Positions 718 to 63,936 are shown, counted from the stretch's first letter. The stretch: 64,000 bases of DNA from Vulcanimicrobiota bacterium (GCA_050250895.1 JBFWNU010000003.1:32001-96000); one strand, 5' to 3'. Notes: a model not told the origin generated them from the letters alone. Translations and numbers: made by a program.

Positions 718-749
718 ATCAGCATTCTTTAAGGGTGCCGTGGCAGGCT
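718..749 (+). promoter_or_regulatory. Class I promoter (11-bp-spaced half-sites plus -10)
   Basis: ATCAG(718)-N6-TTAAG(729)-N10-CAGGCT(744)-N8-ATG(758). Confidence 0.5.
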
Positions 750-757
750 AGAGGCCT

Positions 758-1474
758 ATGGCCACCATAACTCGCAACTTTGATCGTCCCGTTACTACCC
801 GCAAGCGTCTGGGCGGAGTGCCCAGAGATCGCTATGAGTCTACCTGGTGGCCCAAGCACGGTCTTGGCAAGGTCGAGCGCCGGGCCGGGGCCGAAGGCGG
901 CCCGGTGGACGTCTATCGAGACGTTCCCGAATATGACGAACACGGTCAGCCGCAACTCGAGAACGTCACCGAGACCATCACCGAAGAGCCCTATCAGCCC
1001 GGACGAAGAGGGGTTGCCTGCAGCCTGCTCGGCGCCGTCACCGCCGGGCTGGGCGCAGCCACCCTGCTAGCCGCCGGCCCGCTCGGCATCGTAGTGGCCG
1101 CTGGTCTGGGAGCCTACGCCGGTCAGAAAGTCGGCGAGCATACGGCCAAAGACGACCAGGTCGACGAAGTGTGGGTGGATCGCAAGATCGTCCATCCTCA
1201 CATGGAAGGCCACACCGAATACACGATTCCTGTCCCCGAATTCCGCCGCCGCTACGACCGCGACGGCGAGCGCCACACCGACGTGAGCATTCGAGGCTAT
1301 TACCATCACCACAGCCCGGATATTCGCGAAGAAGAAGTGGGTGAATTCACCGAACCGACCTTGCAGCATAGCCGCAAGGTCACCCCAGGAGCGGCCGCCC
1401 TGTTGACGGCCGGGGCCGGTCTGGCTCTGGGCGTGGCCGTGGCTGCCCTGGATCGTTCTGGAAAACGCGCTTAG
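758..1474 (+). CDS. Hypothetical membrane protein with glycine-zipper-like hydrophobic segments
   Basis: 238-aa ORF with G/A-rich segments (LLGAVTAGLGAATLLAAGPLGIVVAAGLGAYAG and a C-terminal AAALLTAGAGLALGVAVAA). Confidence 0.75.
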   Translation: MATITRNFDRPVTTRKRLGGVPRDRYESTWWPKHGLGKVERRAGAEGGPVDVYRDVPEYDEHGQPQLENVTETITEEPYQPGRRGVACSLLGAVTAGLGAATLLAAGPLGIVVAAGLGAYAGQKVGEHTAKDDQVDEVWVDRKIVHPHMEGHTEYTIPVPEFRRRYDRDGERHTDVSIRGYYHHHSPDIREEEVGEFTEPTLQHSRKVTPGAAALLTAGAGLALGVAVAALDRSGKRA

Positions 1475-1756
1475 CCGCGCCGCTGGGCCGACTCCTCGTG
1501 ATCGTCGGCCCGGCCGCGGCTTGACGGGACCGCCGAGAAGGTTTGGTCGGGAAGCGAAACTGCGACGAAGGTGACCTTCTCGTCGCTCCCTATCGGCGCT
1601 GCGCGCCGCGCCGCTGGGCCGACTCTTCGTGATCGTCGGCCCGGCCGCGGCTTGACGGGACCGCCGAGAAGGTTTGGTCGGGAAGCGAAACTGCGACGAA
1701 GGTGACCTTCTCGTCGCTCCCTATCGGCGCTGCGCGCCGCGCCGCTGGGCCGACTC
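1474..1756. repeat. 131-bp tandem direct repeat (2 full copies plus 21 nt) made of palindromes; REP/BIME-like
   Basis: Units start at 1474, 1605 and 1736 with GCCGCGCCGCTGGGCCGACTC, and the two full copies are near-identical. Internal hairpins are GGGCCGAC-N11-GTCGGCCC, GCGACGAAGG-TGA-CCTTCTCGTCGC and GGCGC-TGC-GCGCC. It lies between convergent genes. Confidence 0.9.
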
Positions 1757-2963
1757 AGTCGTTTTCGCCGGTCATCAAGAAGAGCGGCCGCATCTCGAAT
1801 TTCTCATAGACCGGACGCAGCCGCTCGGTGTTATAGTGCTTCTTGATGTCGACCAGTTTCTTGGTGCTGGTGACCACCTCGAGAGGAACGTTGTCATAGC
1901 GGCCGTTGCGTAGCACCACCAGGCGCCCTTCGATGCCTTCCAGGATCAAATCCAGGGCCAGGTTGCCATAGGCCATGGGAGCGATCGAGTCGATGGCGTC
2001 GGGAGACCCGCCGCGGACCAGGTAGCCCAGTCGCTGGTTGACCACGTTGACGCGGCGGCCATTGTTGTATTTGGGCGAGAGTTCTTTGAGGCTGGCGGCC
2101 ACCTGGTCGCCGATGCCACCGAGCTTGGCGTGACCGTACATGTCGGTTTCTTGATTCTCGAAGACCATCTCGCCGCCTTTGAACTTGGCTCCCTCAGAGA
2201 CCAGCACCACCGAGTAGTTGCTGGGGTGCTTGATGCGGTCGGCCACCATCAGTTCGGTCAAGTGCTCGATATCGAACTCGAACTCGGGAATGACGCAACG
2301 GTCGGCGGCTCCGGCCATGGTGGGCAGCATGGCCGTGTAGCCGGCGTAGCGCCCGAAAACCTCCAGCACCAGAAAGCGCTCGTGCGAGCCGGCGGTCGTG
2401 CGCAGGTTGTGGGTCAATTCGATGGTGCGACTCACACAGGTAGAAAAGCCGATACAATAGTCGGTGCCCGGCACGTCGTTGTCCATCGTCTTGGGGATGG
2501 CCACGACCTTGACACCCTTCTTGTGAAGATGTACGCCGTAGCTGAGAGTGTCATCGCCGCCGATGGGAATGAGATGGTCGATACCCAGCCATTCGAGGTT
2601 TCTGAGCACCTCGGGGGTCAGATCGTTGACATCTTCTGAGTAGGCGTCGCGAAGGTGCTCGGGCACATTGACTCGAGGAACGTGGCTGGGTCTGGTTCGC
2701 GACGTATGGAGAAAGGTTCCGCCCGTCCGACCGGCCCGATTGACCAGGTTCTCGCTGAGTTCTAGAAAGTTCTCTGAGTTGTCGGCTCCTTCGCTGCGGT
2801 CGATCTCGATGAGTCCGGCCCAGCCACGCCGCAAGCCGATGACGCGATAGCCTTCGCGAATAGCCCGGATGGTAACGGCTCGGATGGCCGGGTTGAGACC
2901 CGGCACATCGCCGCCGCCGGTGAGAATGCCGATGGTGCCTTTGAGCTTGTTATGGTTGGCCAT
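1755..2963 (-). CDS. 6-phosphofructokinase family protein, probably PPi-dependent
   Basis: GILTGGGDVPGLN, GGDD, PKTMDND and EVFGR motifs; GGAGG SD upstream of ATG 2963. Confidence 0.9.
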   Translation of the reverse strand: MANHNKLKGTIGILTGGGDVPGLNPAIRAVTIRAIREGYRVIGLRRGWAGLIEIDRSEGADNSENFLELSENLVNRAGRTGGTFLHTSRTRPSHVPRVNVPEHLRDAYSEDVNDLTPEVLRNLEWLGIDHLIPIGGDDTLSYGVHLHKKGVKVVAIPKTMDNDVPGTDYCIGFSTCVSRTIELTHNLRTTAGSHERFLVLEVFGRYAGYTAMLPTMAGAADRCVIPEFEFDIEHLTELMVADRIKHPSNYSVVLVSEGAKFKGGEMVFENQETDMYGHAKLGGIGDQVAASLKELSPKYNNGRRVNVVNQRLGYLVRGGSPDAIDSIAPMAYGNLALDLILEGIEGRLVVLRNGRYDNVPLEVVTSTKKLVDIKKHYNTERLRPVYEKFEMRPLFLMTGEND

Positions 2964-62498: not shown

Positions 62499-62971
62499 TC
62501 AGCCCTGACACCTTTCGCGCTTGCATGGGACGGTTCGCCACCGGGGTCACGGTGGTGACGACCCGGGCCGGCGATCAGATCCACGGGATGACCGTCAACT
62601 CCTTCACTTCGGTCTCGCTGCACCCGCCCCTGGTGTTGTTTTGTCCCAACAAATTGACCCGCACCCTGGAGTTGATCCGCGAAGGCGGAGTCTTCGCCAT
62701 CAACGTGCTGGCCGAAAACCAGAAAGACCTGTGTCTGCGCTTTGCGGGCATGACCGAACTCGAAGACCGCTTCGTCGGCCTGACCCACCAGCCGGGCCCG
62801 GCCAGCGGATGCCCACTTTTCGACCAGGCTCTGGCCCACCTCGAGTGTCGCAAGGTCGATGAGCGCGAGGCGGGTGACCATGTCATCGTGGTGGGCGAAG
62901 TCATCGGCCTTGACTACCACGACGGCCGACCGCTGCTGTTCTTCTCGAGCGGTTACCCCAGCCTGCGTTAA
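62495..62971 (+). CDS. Flavin reductase family protein
   Basis: FATGVTVVT, SFTSVSL.PP and GDH motifs. Confidence 0.92.
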   Translation: MISPDTFRACMGRFATGVTVVTTRAGDQIHGMTVNSFTSVSLHPPLVLFCPNKLTRTLELIREGGVFAINVLAENQKDLCLRFAGMTELEDRFVGLTHQPGPASGCPLFDQALAHLECRKVDEREAGDHVIVVGEVIGLDYHDGRPLLFFSSGYPSLR

Positions 62972-63000
62972 ACGGTTTCGTGACGCTCCAGCTTTAAGCT
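62969..63000 (+). promoter_or_regulatory. Class I promoter
   Basis: TAAAC(62969)-N6-GTGAC(62980)-N10-TAAGCT(62995)-N6-ATG(63007). Confidence 0.6.
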
Positions 63001-63006
63001 CAGCCT

Positions 63007-63936
63007 ATGCTAGTGCGCATGGCCAGATTTGCTTTGCCCCCGCTGGCGCGGCCGCGAGCGGCCGCGGTGGCCGAGGGACCGGTCGACCTGGTCGAGTTGA
63101 GCGGAGGGGCGGCCCCGGTGGACGCTCCCACGATCGGCGGCGTGGCCCTGCCCCGGTGGGCCCAAAAACCGCTGGCTTTTGGTTGGGACTGCCCGGCCGA
63201 CGAGTTCTCTCGCCGCTGCCGCGAGGCCGTGGCCGGCCTGACGAGCGGCCAGCCCTTAGAGCGGCTCAAACTGGGCGAGAACTTTACCAATTCGGTCTAT
63301 CTGGTGCACCTCGACAACGGCTTGGCGGCTATCTGGAAGCCCGAATCGGGAGAATACGCCCGCCCGTTGCGGGTGAACATTTCCCCTCAGCAAGAGGCTC
63401 GTCGTGAAGTCATGGGCTACCTCCTCGATGCCGCCCTGGGACATCTGGCCCGCGTGCCTCCGCTGGTGCGCCGCCAGCTCGACGGAAGCTGGGGAACCTT
63501 GCAGCTGTTCGTGCCGGGGACGGGACCGGGCCAGCCTTTCGAGGGCACTCCTCGTTATGGGGATGTGGCCGTCTATGACCATGTGGTGGGCAATCTCGAC
63601 CGCCATGATCACAACTGGCTCCAGGACGAGGCGGGTAACATCATTCCCATCGATCACGGCCTGATCTTGCCCGAGAGCAACAGCGCCCAGGGCGCCCACA
63701 ATTTTCTGCTGTCGGAGCCGATCGAACTCGAACCCCGCCATCGCCAGGCCCTCGAAAGACTCCAGCAAAGCTGGCCCCAATTGCAGGCAAGCGCCAGCCA
63801 ATTGGGGCTGCCTCAAGAAACGCTGATGGCTATGCGAGACCGGGTCAAGCTGATGCGGCTCACGGGCCGGACCTCGAACGGCTGGCGGGGCGGGGATGAC
63901 TTTCCCACCTGTTACCAGGCGGGGCTAGCCTTCTAG
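63007..63936 (+). CDS. PI3/4-kinase-like (HipA/CtkA-like) kinase
   Basis: AIWKP, REV..Y, G.LQLFV, NLDRH..N and IDHGL motifs. Confidence 0.82.
   Translation: MLVRMARFALPPLARPRAAAVAEGPVDLVELSGGAAPVDAPTIGGVALPRWAQKPLAFGWDCPADEFSRRCREAVAGLTSGQPLERLKLGENFTNSVYLVHLDNGLAAIWKPESGEYARPLRVNISPQQEARREVMGYLLDAALGHLARVPPLVRRQLDGSWGTLQLFVPGTGPGQPFEGTPRYGDVAVYDHVVGNLDRHDHNWLQDEAGNIIPIDHGLILPESNSAQGAHNFLLSEPIELEPRHRQALERLQQSWPQLQASASQLGLPQETLMAMRDRVKLMRLTGRTSNGWRGGDDFPTCYQAGLAF

Follow-up and report, generated by a model that had tools for sequence, protein, structure and literature searches.

Two classes of phased direct-repeat promoters precede hundreds of mostly lineage-specific genes in a large-genome Vulcanimicrobiota bacterium

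A stretch of 64,000 nucleotides from the genome of a Vulcanimicrobiota bacterium (GCA_050250895.1, JBFWNU010000003.1:32001-96000; G000:C3:32001-96000 in our numbering), here called the window, raises the question of whether dispersed orphan and effector-like genes can share one promoter design and one regulator. A first-pass annotation had proposed this for eight genes (starts 758+, 10686-, 15940+, 20175+, 24789+, 36099-, 37681- and 63007+), each preceded by KTNAS-like pentamers paired 11 bp apart, the last ending 10 or 21 nt before a -10-like hexamer. All eight gene starts, and all the pentamers and hexamers quoted for them, are present in the sequence. The idea of one regulator and one design for eight genes did not hold, however. 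The genome contains two sequence-distinct promoter classes, one with paired TTTCAG at a gap of 10 nt from the -10 (class A) and one with paired GTTAACA at a gap of 21 nt (class B), which have hundreds of members each and which the annotation had in effect merged.

The host genome comprises 9.50 Mb in 17 contigs with 63% G+C, and no tRNA or Rfam matches were found in the window. Genes were called with a hexamer Markov gene finder trained on long open reading frames (ORFs), which gave 7808 genes and 86.5% coding sequence; every candidate start codon was kept for each gene, and all gene-based counts given below rest on this crude caller. Site scores are from position weight matrices learned from the whole genome, with block-shuffled DNA as the control. 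The model as originally written, KTNAS-N6-KTNAS-N10/21-YANNNT, was matched exactly by only two of the eight sites (20175 and 36099). In a scan of the whole genome it was nevertheless found 235 times at gap 10 (40 in block-shuffled DNA) and 90 times at gap 21 (32 shuffled), and at the control gaps 12, 15, 17 and 25 the counts were 22-36 against 39-46 shuffled, so that enrichment occurred only at the two proposed gaps.

A short distance from the -10 to the ATG, 6-8 nt in five of the eight cases, had been noted for these genes; it is a general leaderless design of the genome and no mark of the eight. A TANNNT hexamer ended exactly 6 nt before the start in 5.5% of the 7806 longest-ORF starts, against 0.4-1.2% at other offsets between 0 and 44. 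The hexamers most frequent at this position were TAGGCT (n = 41, 0.9 expected), TAGACT (n = 39), TAGAAT (n = 28) and TAAGCT (n = 25), about 30-45 times expectation. This peak shows that several hundred genes of the genome are leaderless, with a -10 of the form TAGnCT ending 6 nt before the start codon. Leaderless promoters with a -10 TANNNT a few nucleotides before the start are found in Actinomycetota and Deinococcota, and the several hundred genes found here share that arrangement; the layout is, however, a property of the genome in general and not the signal of a regulon. The 344 leaderless promoters that belong to neither class carried TTGACA at -35 to -30, in 12 cases as an exact copy, and an extended -10 in which the frequency of G at -14 was 0.65. 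The two classes are thereby distinct from leaderless promoters of the housekeeping type, in agreement with the original impression. A canonical sigma-70 -35 element (TTGACA-like, 17±1 bp from the -10) was absent in both. Since the promoters in neither class keep TTGACA, the repeats of classes A and B occupy or replace the -35.

Class A became apparent when 528 leaderless starts were aligned on their start codons, where two weak T-T-c-A-G elements were seen at -39 to -34 and at -28 to -23. Exact TTTCAG was found in 51 of the 528 promoters at the proximal position and in 28 at the distal one, and both boxes occurred together in 96, against 32 expected. The consensus, obtained with a matrix of 36 nt iterated over the whole genome, is tTTCAG-nnTTy-TTTCAG-N10-cTAGnCT, that is TTTCAG-N5-TTTCAG-N10-TAGnCT. 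The T, T and A of the two hexamers are exactly 11 bp apart, as direct, head-to-tail repeats, the gap to the -10 is rigid at 10 nt, and a weak T-rich phasing continues upstream of the boxes. The matrix identified 305 sites above 20 bits in the genome and none in block-shuffled DNA (327 and 1, respectively, above 18 bits). For the 327 sites above 18 bits the positions relative to genes were as follows: a start codon lies at -2 to +3 of the predicted transcription start in 183 of them, 4-60 nt downstream in 107 and at least 61 nt downstream in 14, while 10 sites are inside genes and 13 have no downstream gene. At a threshold of 14 bits, 267 of the 7806 upstream regions scored for class A, and no shuffled region did.

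Class B was recognised from KTNAC pentamers, which have a peak at -49 and further ones at -38, -58 and -69. After iteration the box reads GTTAACA at -50 to -44 and GKTAACA at -39 to -33 (GTTAACA-N4-GKTAACA), again a direct repeat of 11 bp, and may equally be read as TTAA-N7-TTAAC. GTTAAC being palindromic, strong boxes score on both strands. The CtrA-type box KTWACANNNNKKTAAC had 58 matches in the genome and 2 in shuffled DNA, and the class B box alone 513 against 39 above 16 bits. Distances from the box to the next TANNNT showed peaks at 21 (n = 128), 22 (n = 43), 32-33, 41-44 and 52-54 nt, so the box is phased with the helix relative to the -10 in steps of about 10.5-11 bp. When a box above 14 bits was combined with TANNNT at gap 21, 112 cases were found (1 shuffled; 4-8 at control gaps), and above 12 bits 146 (5 shuffled). 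CANNNT at gap 21 behind class B boxes was not enriched (16, against 6-32 at other offsets). The 112 promoters with gap 21 also displayed a weak third repeat at -27 (18, against 0-7 at neighbouring offsets), which suggests that class B may share the register of 10 nt from the -10. A class B box above 15 bits was present within 140 nt upstream of 389 genes.

The half-sites of the two classes differ, and their co-occurrence is at the level of chance: counted per gene, 265 genes had a class A site, 337 a class B site and 12 both, where 11.4 were expected. On these grounds a single regulator for both classes was rejected. Each regulon comprises roughly 270-390 first genes, mostly lineage-specific, which is about 4-5% of the genes per class.

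Both classes were followed across 41 genomes, among them 15 others of the same family (f1), those of a second family (f2) and 19 small genomes (1.9-4.7 Mb) of a sister family (f3). For class A the pattern TTNAG-N6-TTNAG-N10-TANNNT was used, with the reversed pattern as control. It was found 108 times in the host genome (control 1). A genus mate had 112 copies, the 14 remaining members of the family 7-52 each (the lowest count, 7, being that of an assembly 75% complete) and the genomes of family f2 41-106. A genome of the same class and another family (G040) had 11 copies against 0 in the control. In the small genomes of f3 the counts were 0-9 against controls of 0-5, approximately background. 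The class B box divided the relatives in the same way; both classes are thus enriched in the large-genome relatives and at background in the small-genome sister family.

Orthologous promoters were inspected for two of the genes in the window. A search with the M48 protease encoded at 20175-21104 for close relatives returned only distant homologues from other phyla, at most 37% identical. Orthologue loci in the related genomes (L118-L122; 34-48% protein identity) had a class A site upstream in all five cases examined, at 13.2-28.3 bits; the sequence between the boxes was unrelated. At two of these loci, L120 in genome G006 and L121 in G004, divergent gene pairs were seen, each gene with its own class A promoter, back to back about 85 nt apart. 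The product of gene 758-1474 is an orphan protein of 238 amino acids (aa) from a multi-copy family, with six matches in the host genome. Orthologues 49-59% identical were found in 14 of 15 f1 genomes and in all 5 f2 genomes, and the four f3 genomes searched had none; this distribution is also that of the two promoter classes. None of the seven orthologue loci had a class A site above 8 bits, in a scan that recovered the host's own site as a positive control. Instead, all seven had a class B box of 11.9-15.4 bits at gap 21 (six loci) or 22 (one locus) from a TANNNT, with the ATG 6-7 nt further on. Orthologues thus differ in promoter class, and this turnover ties classes A and B to one functional sphere.

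The genes behind class A were found to be rich in orphans, as had been proposed. Among the first genes of the 100 best class A sites, 69 had no Pfam family at 1e-5. The same was true of 38 of the 92 genes in six 20-kb regions chosen at random (Fisher p = 1.5e-4) and of 17 of 54 other genes of the window (p = 1.4e-6 with both controls pooled). The genes that could be named encode five BamB/PQQ propellers, two InhA-like MAM giants, two alpha-amylase-family enzymes, two GDPD proteins, a glycerol-3-phosphate oxidase, a CarF-like lipid desaturase, an acyltransferase, a caleosin, a P450, and PilZ, LysM and endonuclease I proteins. No ribosomal protein, tRNA synthetase or polymerase subunit was among the named first genes of these 100 sites. 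A separate search with PF07596, meant as a test for planctomycetes, had no match anywhere, not even in the controls, and is thus uninformative. Paralogue groups within the 273 class A genes have up to nine members. For class B the proportion without a Pfam family was 24 among the top 40 genes. The named ones encode a flagellar rod protein, a FliK-like protein, an SLT transglycosylase, a long SecA, DivIC, M36 and S8 peptidases and a starch synthase. Three small class B targets of 87-99 aa, probably helical proteins, share the conserved core ...RWKI..D.QTKIFEI..DVT.NKAK...; the one member tested had no Pfam match.

Class A proteins have, besides the promoter, a common beginning. They start with M-x-[I/V], followed by a stretch rich in Pro, Ala and Arg and by ...P-x-D-x-V-x-L-S, a leader of about 35-45 residues that is exemplified in the window by the products of genes 758-1474, 20175-21104 and 10318-10686. 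About half of the class A proteins carry it, often with a Gly/Ala-rich, glycine-zipper-like hydrophobic segment after it. Residue 3 was I or V in 153 of the 273 class A proteins, compared with 14% of all genes, and residue 2 was mostly Q, R, I or K. The motif D-[QRKS]-V-x-[LI]-[ST] around residue 30 was present in 13-14% of class A proteins and in 1.4-2.4% of all proteins (26 sequences were aligned). The combined rule of I or V at residue 3 and no D or E in residues 2-10 was satisfied by 127 of 273 class A proteins and by 517 of 7535 others (odds ratio 11.8); for class B genes the number was 90 of 389. Class A genes with and without an mRNA leader satisfied the rule alike, and it is therefore a feature of the protein and not a by-product of leaderless initiation. 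In the distant genome G040, six of the eight readable ORFs behind class A sites had I or V at residue 3, and one contained P-A-D-R-I-A-L-G.

A hydrophobic stretch within the first 40 residues was found in only 3.3% of class A proteins, compared with 23% of all, and the leader is accordingly no Sec signal. In the class A enzymes the catalytic domain begins only after residue 75-290, and neither Pfam nor NCBIfam holds a model that covers the leader region. The idea of a type III (injectisome) signal was considered and found unsupported. The host genome has two full-length FlhA/SctV genes (C1:585691-587613 and C1:1458965-1460971), the first of which lies in a flagellar locus with FliD, FliS, MotAB, FlhB, FliR, FliQ, FliE, FliG and FliH, and two f2 genomes with many class A sites show only one full-length FlhA. 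The rod and FliK-like genes lie elsewhere, and ten class B boxes are within 40 kb of the second FlhA gene. It was also observed that the host genome encodes eight stand-alone proteins whose similarity to FlhA is confined to its C-terminal cytoplasmic half (positions about 322-656). The number of such matches was 5-19 in the large-genome relatives (3 in one assembly 75% complete) and 2-3 in family f3.

The proposed sites of the window may now be assigned. Three of the eight belong to class A. The promoter of gene 758-1474 (717-749, +, 24.3 bits) consists of a distal GATCAG at 717-722, a proximal TTTAAG at 728-733 and a -10 CAGGCT at 744-749; transcription is predicted to start at 756, leaving a 2-nt leader. 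The promoter of the orphan gene 10686-10318 (10693-10725, -, 21.1 bits) has its distal TTTCAG at 10720-10725, a proximal TTTTAA at 10709-10714 and a -10 TAGAAT at 10693-10698. The gene is leaderless, with transcription predicted to begin on the ATG at 10686, and no homologue of it was found in 24 relatives at E<=1e-8. The highest score of the three, 28.6 bits, was that of the M48 protease gene 20175-21104 (20136-20168, +), where TTTCAG at 20136-20141 and again at 20147-20152 precedes a -10 TAGGCT at 20163-20168; for this gene, too, transcription is predicted to begin without a leader, on the ATG at 20175.

Two further sites are of class B, with TANNNT at gap 21. Orphan gene 15940-16299 has a box of 12.4 bits (15891-15933, +) made up of TTAAC at 15891-15895 and TCAAC at 15902-15906, separated by 21 nt from the -10 TATGCT at 15928-15933 and followed by a leaderless ATG at 15940. 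In front of gene 36099 a box of 14.8 bits (36119-36161, -) combines TTTAC at 36157-36161 and GTAAC at 36146-36150, the gap of 21 nt and a -10 TAGGCT at 36119-36124. Transcription is predicted to start near 36112, with a 13-nt leader in which GGAGG precedes the ATG. The longest ORF at this position begins at 36129 (-) and would fall inside the promoter, and the ATG at 36099 is therefore favoured over 36129. The dioxygenase-like gene 24789-25379 is preceded by a class B-like box of the same score, 14.8 bits (24728-24770, +; TTAAC at 24728-24732, GCAAC at 24739-24743). Its membership in class B is uncertain because the hexamer at the -10 position, CAGGAT at 24765-24770, belongs to the CANNNT type that is not enriched at gap 21. 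The strongest class B box of the window was absent from the first-pass annotation. It precedes the YggS-like PLP gene 19460 (19390-19453, +; plus strand 25.5 bits, minus strand 20.2) and is a near-palindromic GTTAACA-N4-GTTAACA, with TTAAC at 19390-19394 and 19401-19405, 42 nt, a -10 TAGAGT at 19448-19453 and a leaderless ATG at 19460; this gene is among the top 40 of class B.

The remaining two sites belong to neither class. Before gene 37681-36896, which encodes a protein of 261 aa with a weak Ig-like match, the repeats CTGTCAG / GTTGTAAG / CTGTCGC / CTGTCAC (37712-37771, -) follow each other with a period of 11 bp and end 10 nt before TAATCT at 37712-37717, with scores of 3.2 bits for class A and 0.5 bits for class B. 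A Pho regulon was rejected for this site: TGTCR-N6-TGTCA had 6 matches in the genome against 21 in shuffled DNA, and CTGTCA-N5-CTGTCA 0 against 1. The site looks pho-box-like and isolated, and may be either part of a small true Pho-type regulon or a product of chance. The site before gene 63007-63936, whose product has a Pfam PI3_PI4_kinase match at 1.1e-9, consists of TAAAC, GTGAC, 10 nt and TAAGCT at 62995-63000 (62969-63000, +; 0.0 bits for class A, 1.5 bits for class B). Its geometry is leaderless and its boxes fit neither class.

What binds the repeats? Direct repeats with a period of 11 bp, rigidly spaced to the -10 and replacing the -35, are a hallmark of OmpR/PhoB-type activators, the distance between pho box and -10 being 10 nt. 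The geometry of class A, in which the last repeat takes the place of a -35 and ends 10 nt upstream of the -10, agrees with this, as the first-pass annotation had pointed out. We therefore favour, with moderate confidence, two distinct winged-helix activators of the OmpR/PhoB type, one for each class, acting in place of the -35. Each activator would bind head-to-tail on its own 11-bp repeats on one face of the helix and, in the manner of PhoB at pho boxes, would recruit RNA polymerase that carries the ordinary primary sigma factor. Class A transcripts would usually be leaderless, with the -10, 6 nt and the start codon in succession, and class B boxes would act from 21 nt upstream of the -10 or from further upstream in steps of about 10.5-11 bp. 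Because the leader is shared and a glycine-zipper-like segment often follows it, the class A regulon has the look of a single programme that coordinates a set of specially targeted proteins, either in the membrane or exported.

Canonical OmpR-type regulators encoded in the genome number 19, and 10 larger proteins (504-1123 aa) also match Trans_reg_C, 7 of them over the curated cut-off. Several points weigh against the two-activator reading. No site of either class was found in the promoter of any of the 19 OmpR-type genes; the one class A hit near such a gene is weak (14.2 bits) and 959 nt upstream, and three class B boxes lie near two of the larger Trans_reg_C proteins. Neither does any of the 19 reach an NCBIfam equivalog cut-off, so that none can be named CtrA, PhoB or PmrA; the best scores were 254.6 bits for PhoB (cut-off 296.2) and 157 for CtrA (cut-off 350). 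The regulators of either class are candidates only. Activation rather than repression, and the positions of the transcription starts, are deduced from geometry alone. About 300 promoters are many for a classical two-component regulator, class B is only weakly and not significantly enriched in orphans (24 of 40 genes, compared with 38 of 92; p = 0.06), and the statistics of distances and leaders carry some error from the crude gene finder on which calls and starts depend. The profile of the leader has low complexity and is too short to be run against whole databases: built from 26 seeds it added few members, finding only 33 genes at E<1e-3, and few of the matches outside the seeds had a class A promoter.

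A degenerate motif is easily over-read, and KTNAS, expected at 1 in 64 positions, is loose; only two of the eight sites matched the written model, and 37681 and 63007 fit no enriched class. As an explanation of the two classes, chance is nonetheless already refuted and scarcely credible, given the counts (305 against 0 and 513 against 39 in shuffled DNA), the position-specific peaks, the orientation before genes and the conservation elsewhere. For site 63007 chance is the likeliest reading, and for 37681 and 24789 a possible one. Direct-repeat activators of another kind, either SARP/AfsR-like proteins with a winged helix and BTAD or the large proteins with a Trans_reg_C-like C-terminus, might bind the boxes in place of OmpR-type regulators, which we regard as unlikely. 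SARP promoters have heptamer repeats with a period of 11 bp, the last of them 8 nt from the -10. Class A matches that period and the general geometry of repeats near the -10, yet its gap is 10 nt when the box is counted as a hexamer and 9 as a heptamer, and the known SARPs control single gene clusters, not hundreds of promoters. Candidates of this kind exist: among the ten large Trans_reg_C proteins, the one at C1:3333274-3335112 ends adjoining a class A site. A receiver-BTAD-TPR protein of 790 aa was also met with in one of the random regions (L132:6377-8749; G000 C2:312322-314694). Its gene stands after a histidine kinase gene and before that of a Ser/Thr kinase with TPR and BTAD; these are SARP-like regulators and candidate binders of the boxes.

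It is distinctly unlikely, in our estimate, that RNA polymerase itself reads the repeats, through an alternative sigma factor, a lineage-specific domain of polymerase or sigma, or an UP-element-like contact of the alpha subunit. The very large numbers of members and the upstream T-rich phasing would suit this explanation, as would the -10 region of class A, which is somewhat unlike the canonical one (frequencies in class A and in canonical promoters, respectively: G at -10, 0.60-0.68 and 0.31; C at -8, 0.64-0.66 and 0.42; G at -14, 0.37-0.43 and 0.65). The T, A and T of TANNNT are, however, identical in class A and the canonical class, two identical direct repeats spaced 11 bp apart are unlike the reading of a -35 by any known sigma region 4, and for a -35 element a hexamer that ends 10 nt before the -10 stands too near and one that ends 21 nt before it too far away. 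The boxes could also be operators of a repressor that keeps the genes off, since the region from -50 to -23 overlaps that bound by polymerase. This we hold to be quite improbable, as both classes are without a -35 of their own and should be weak unaided, and as activators that must touch polymerase typically show such a rigid phasing to the -10, here with peaks at 21 and 32 nt and at about 43 and 53 nt.

The two putative activators may be compared with well-known systems. With PhoB at the pho boxes of E. coli, the archetype of class II activation by regulators of this family, class A shares the two 11-bp repeats, the proximal repeat ending 10 nt before the -10 and the lack of a separate -35. 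It differs in its half-site (TTTCAG, not CTGTCAT), in its size (about 300 promoters, not a few dozen), in being mostly leaderless, in targets without a visible link to phosphate and in that the cut-off of the PhoB model is not reached. The CtrA box of Alphaproteobacteria is TTAA-N7-TTAAC, and the PmrA element of Legionella and Coxiella stands upstream of dispersed Icm/Dot effector genes. Class B, which reads as the same TTAA-N7-TTAAC just upstream of the -35 position, resembles both: it precedes genes for a flagellar rod protein, a FliK-like protein and an SLT transglycosylase together with many orphans, and it marks dispersed lineage-specific genes. The differences are the other phylum, the hundreds of sites and the CtrA and PmrA models, whose cut-offs are not reached. 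PmrA is described as a winged-helix regulator that activates about 40 effector genes scattered over the Legionella genome (PMC6989116).

A further, more speculative reading concerns the leader, which may be a targeting signal. It is conceivable, though we regard it as doubtful, that the class A promoter, and in part the class B promoter, marks the substrates of an undescribed route of protein sorting or export. Well over 100 otherwise unrelated proteins would then have the same leader, usually followed by a glycine-zipper hairpin; this set would include amylases, lipid acyltransferases, desaturases, GDPD proteins, an M48 protease, InhA-like giants, BamB-like propellers and orphans. On the same tentative footing, promoter and leader might have moved jointly through at least three families of this little-known phylum, with genes able to swap promoter class. 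In Pseudomonas syringae, the hrp-box and N-terminal export-signal rules have been used together to find type III effectors. The situation here is similar in that a promoter motif and an N-terminal feature mark a large, dispersed set spanning many families, and that the feature includes an aliphatic residue 3 and few acidic residues among the first 10. It differs in that the promoter is a direct repeat and not that of an ECF sigma factor, and in that no injectisome was found, the one FlhA locus annotated being flagellar.

No publications on promoter motifs or regulons of this phylum were found in the literature searched, the Eremiobacterota papers being judged from their titles and the beginnings of their abstracts. 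A search for TTTCAG direct repeats with a response regulator led to a paper on phaseolotoxin. Paoli et al. 2022 describe large-genome Eremiobacterota with a suggested predatory habit and with transcription states that differ in secretion and degradative genes (PMC9259500), a group to which the genome investigated here may belong.

The two promoter grammars allow transcription starts and co-regulated sets to be predicted and start codons to be corrected, with 36099 against 36129 as an example, in large-genome bacteria that are mostly uncultured, and they also allow the design of inducible promoters for them. The switching between classes A and B among orthologues offers a clean natural example of regulon rewiring. 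The shared promoter, and for class A also the leader, turns hundreds of orphan genes into one testable programme and leaves two targets that may be searched for, namely the two regulators and the machinery that reads the leader. Should the doubtful export-route reading prove true, promoter and leader would form a regulatory and targeting backbone of genome expansion in the large-genome lineages, for instance for a programme of dormancy, envelope remodelling or attack.

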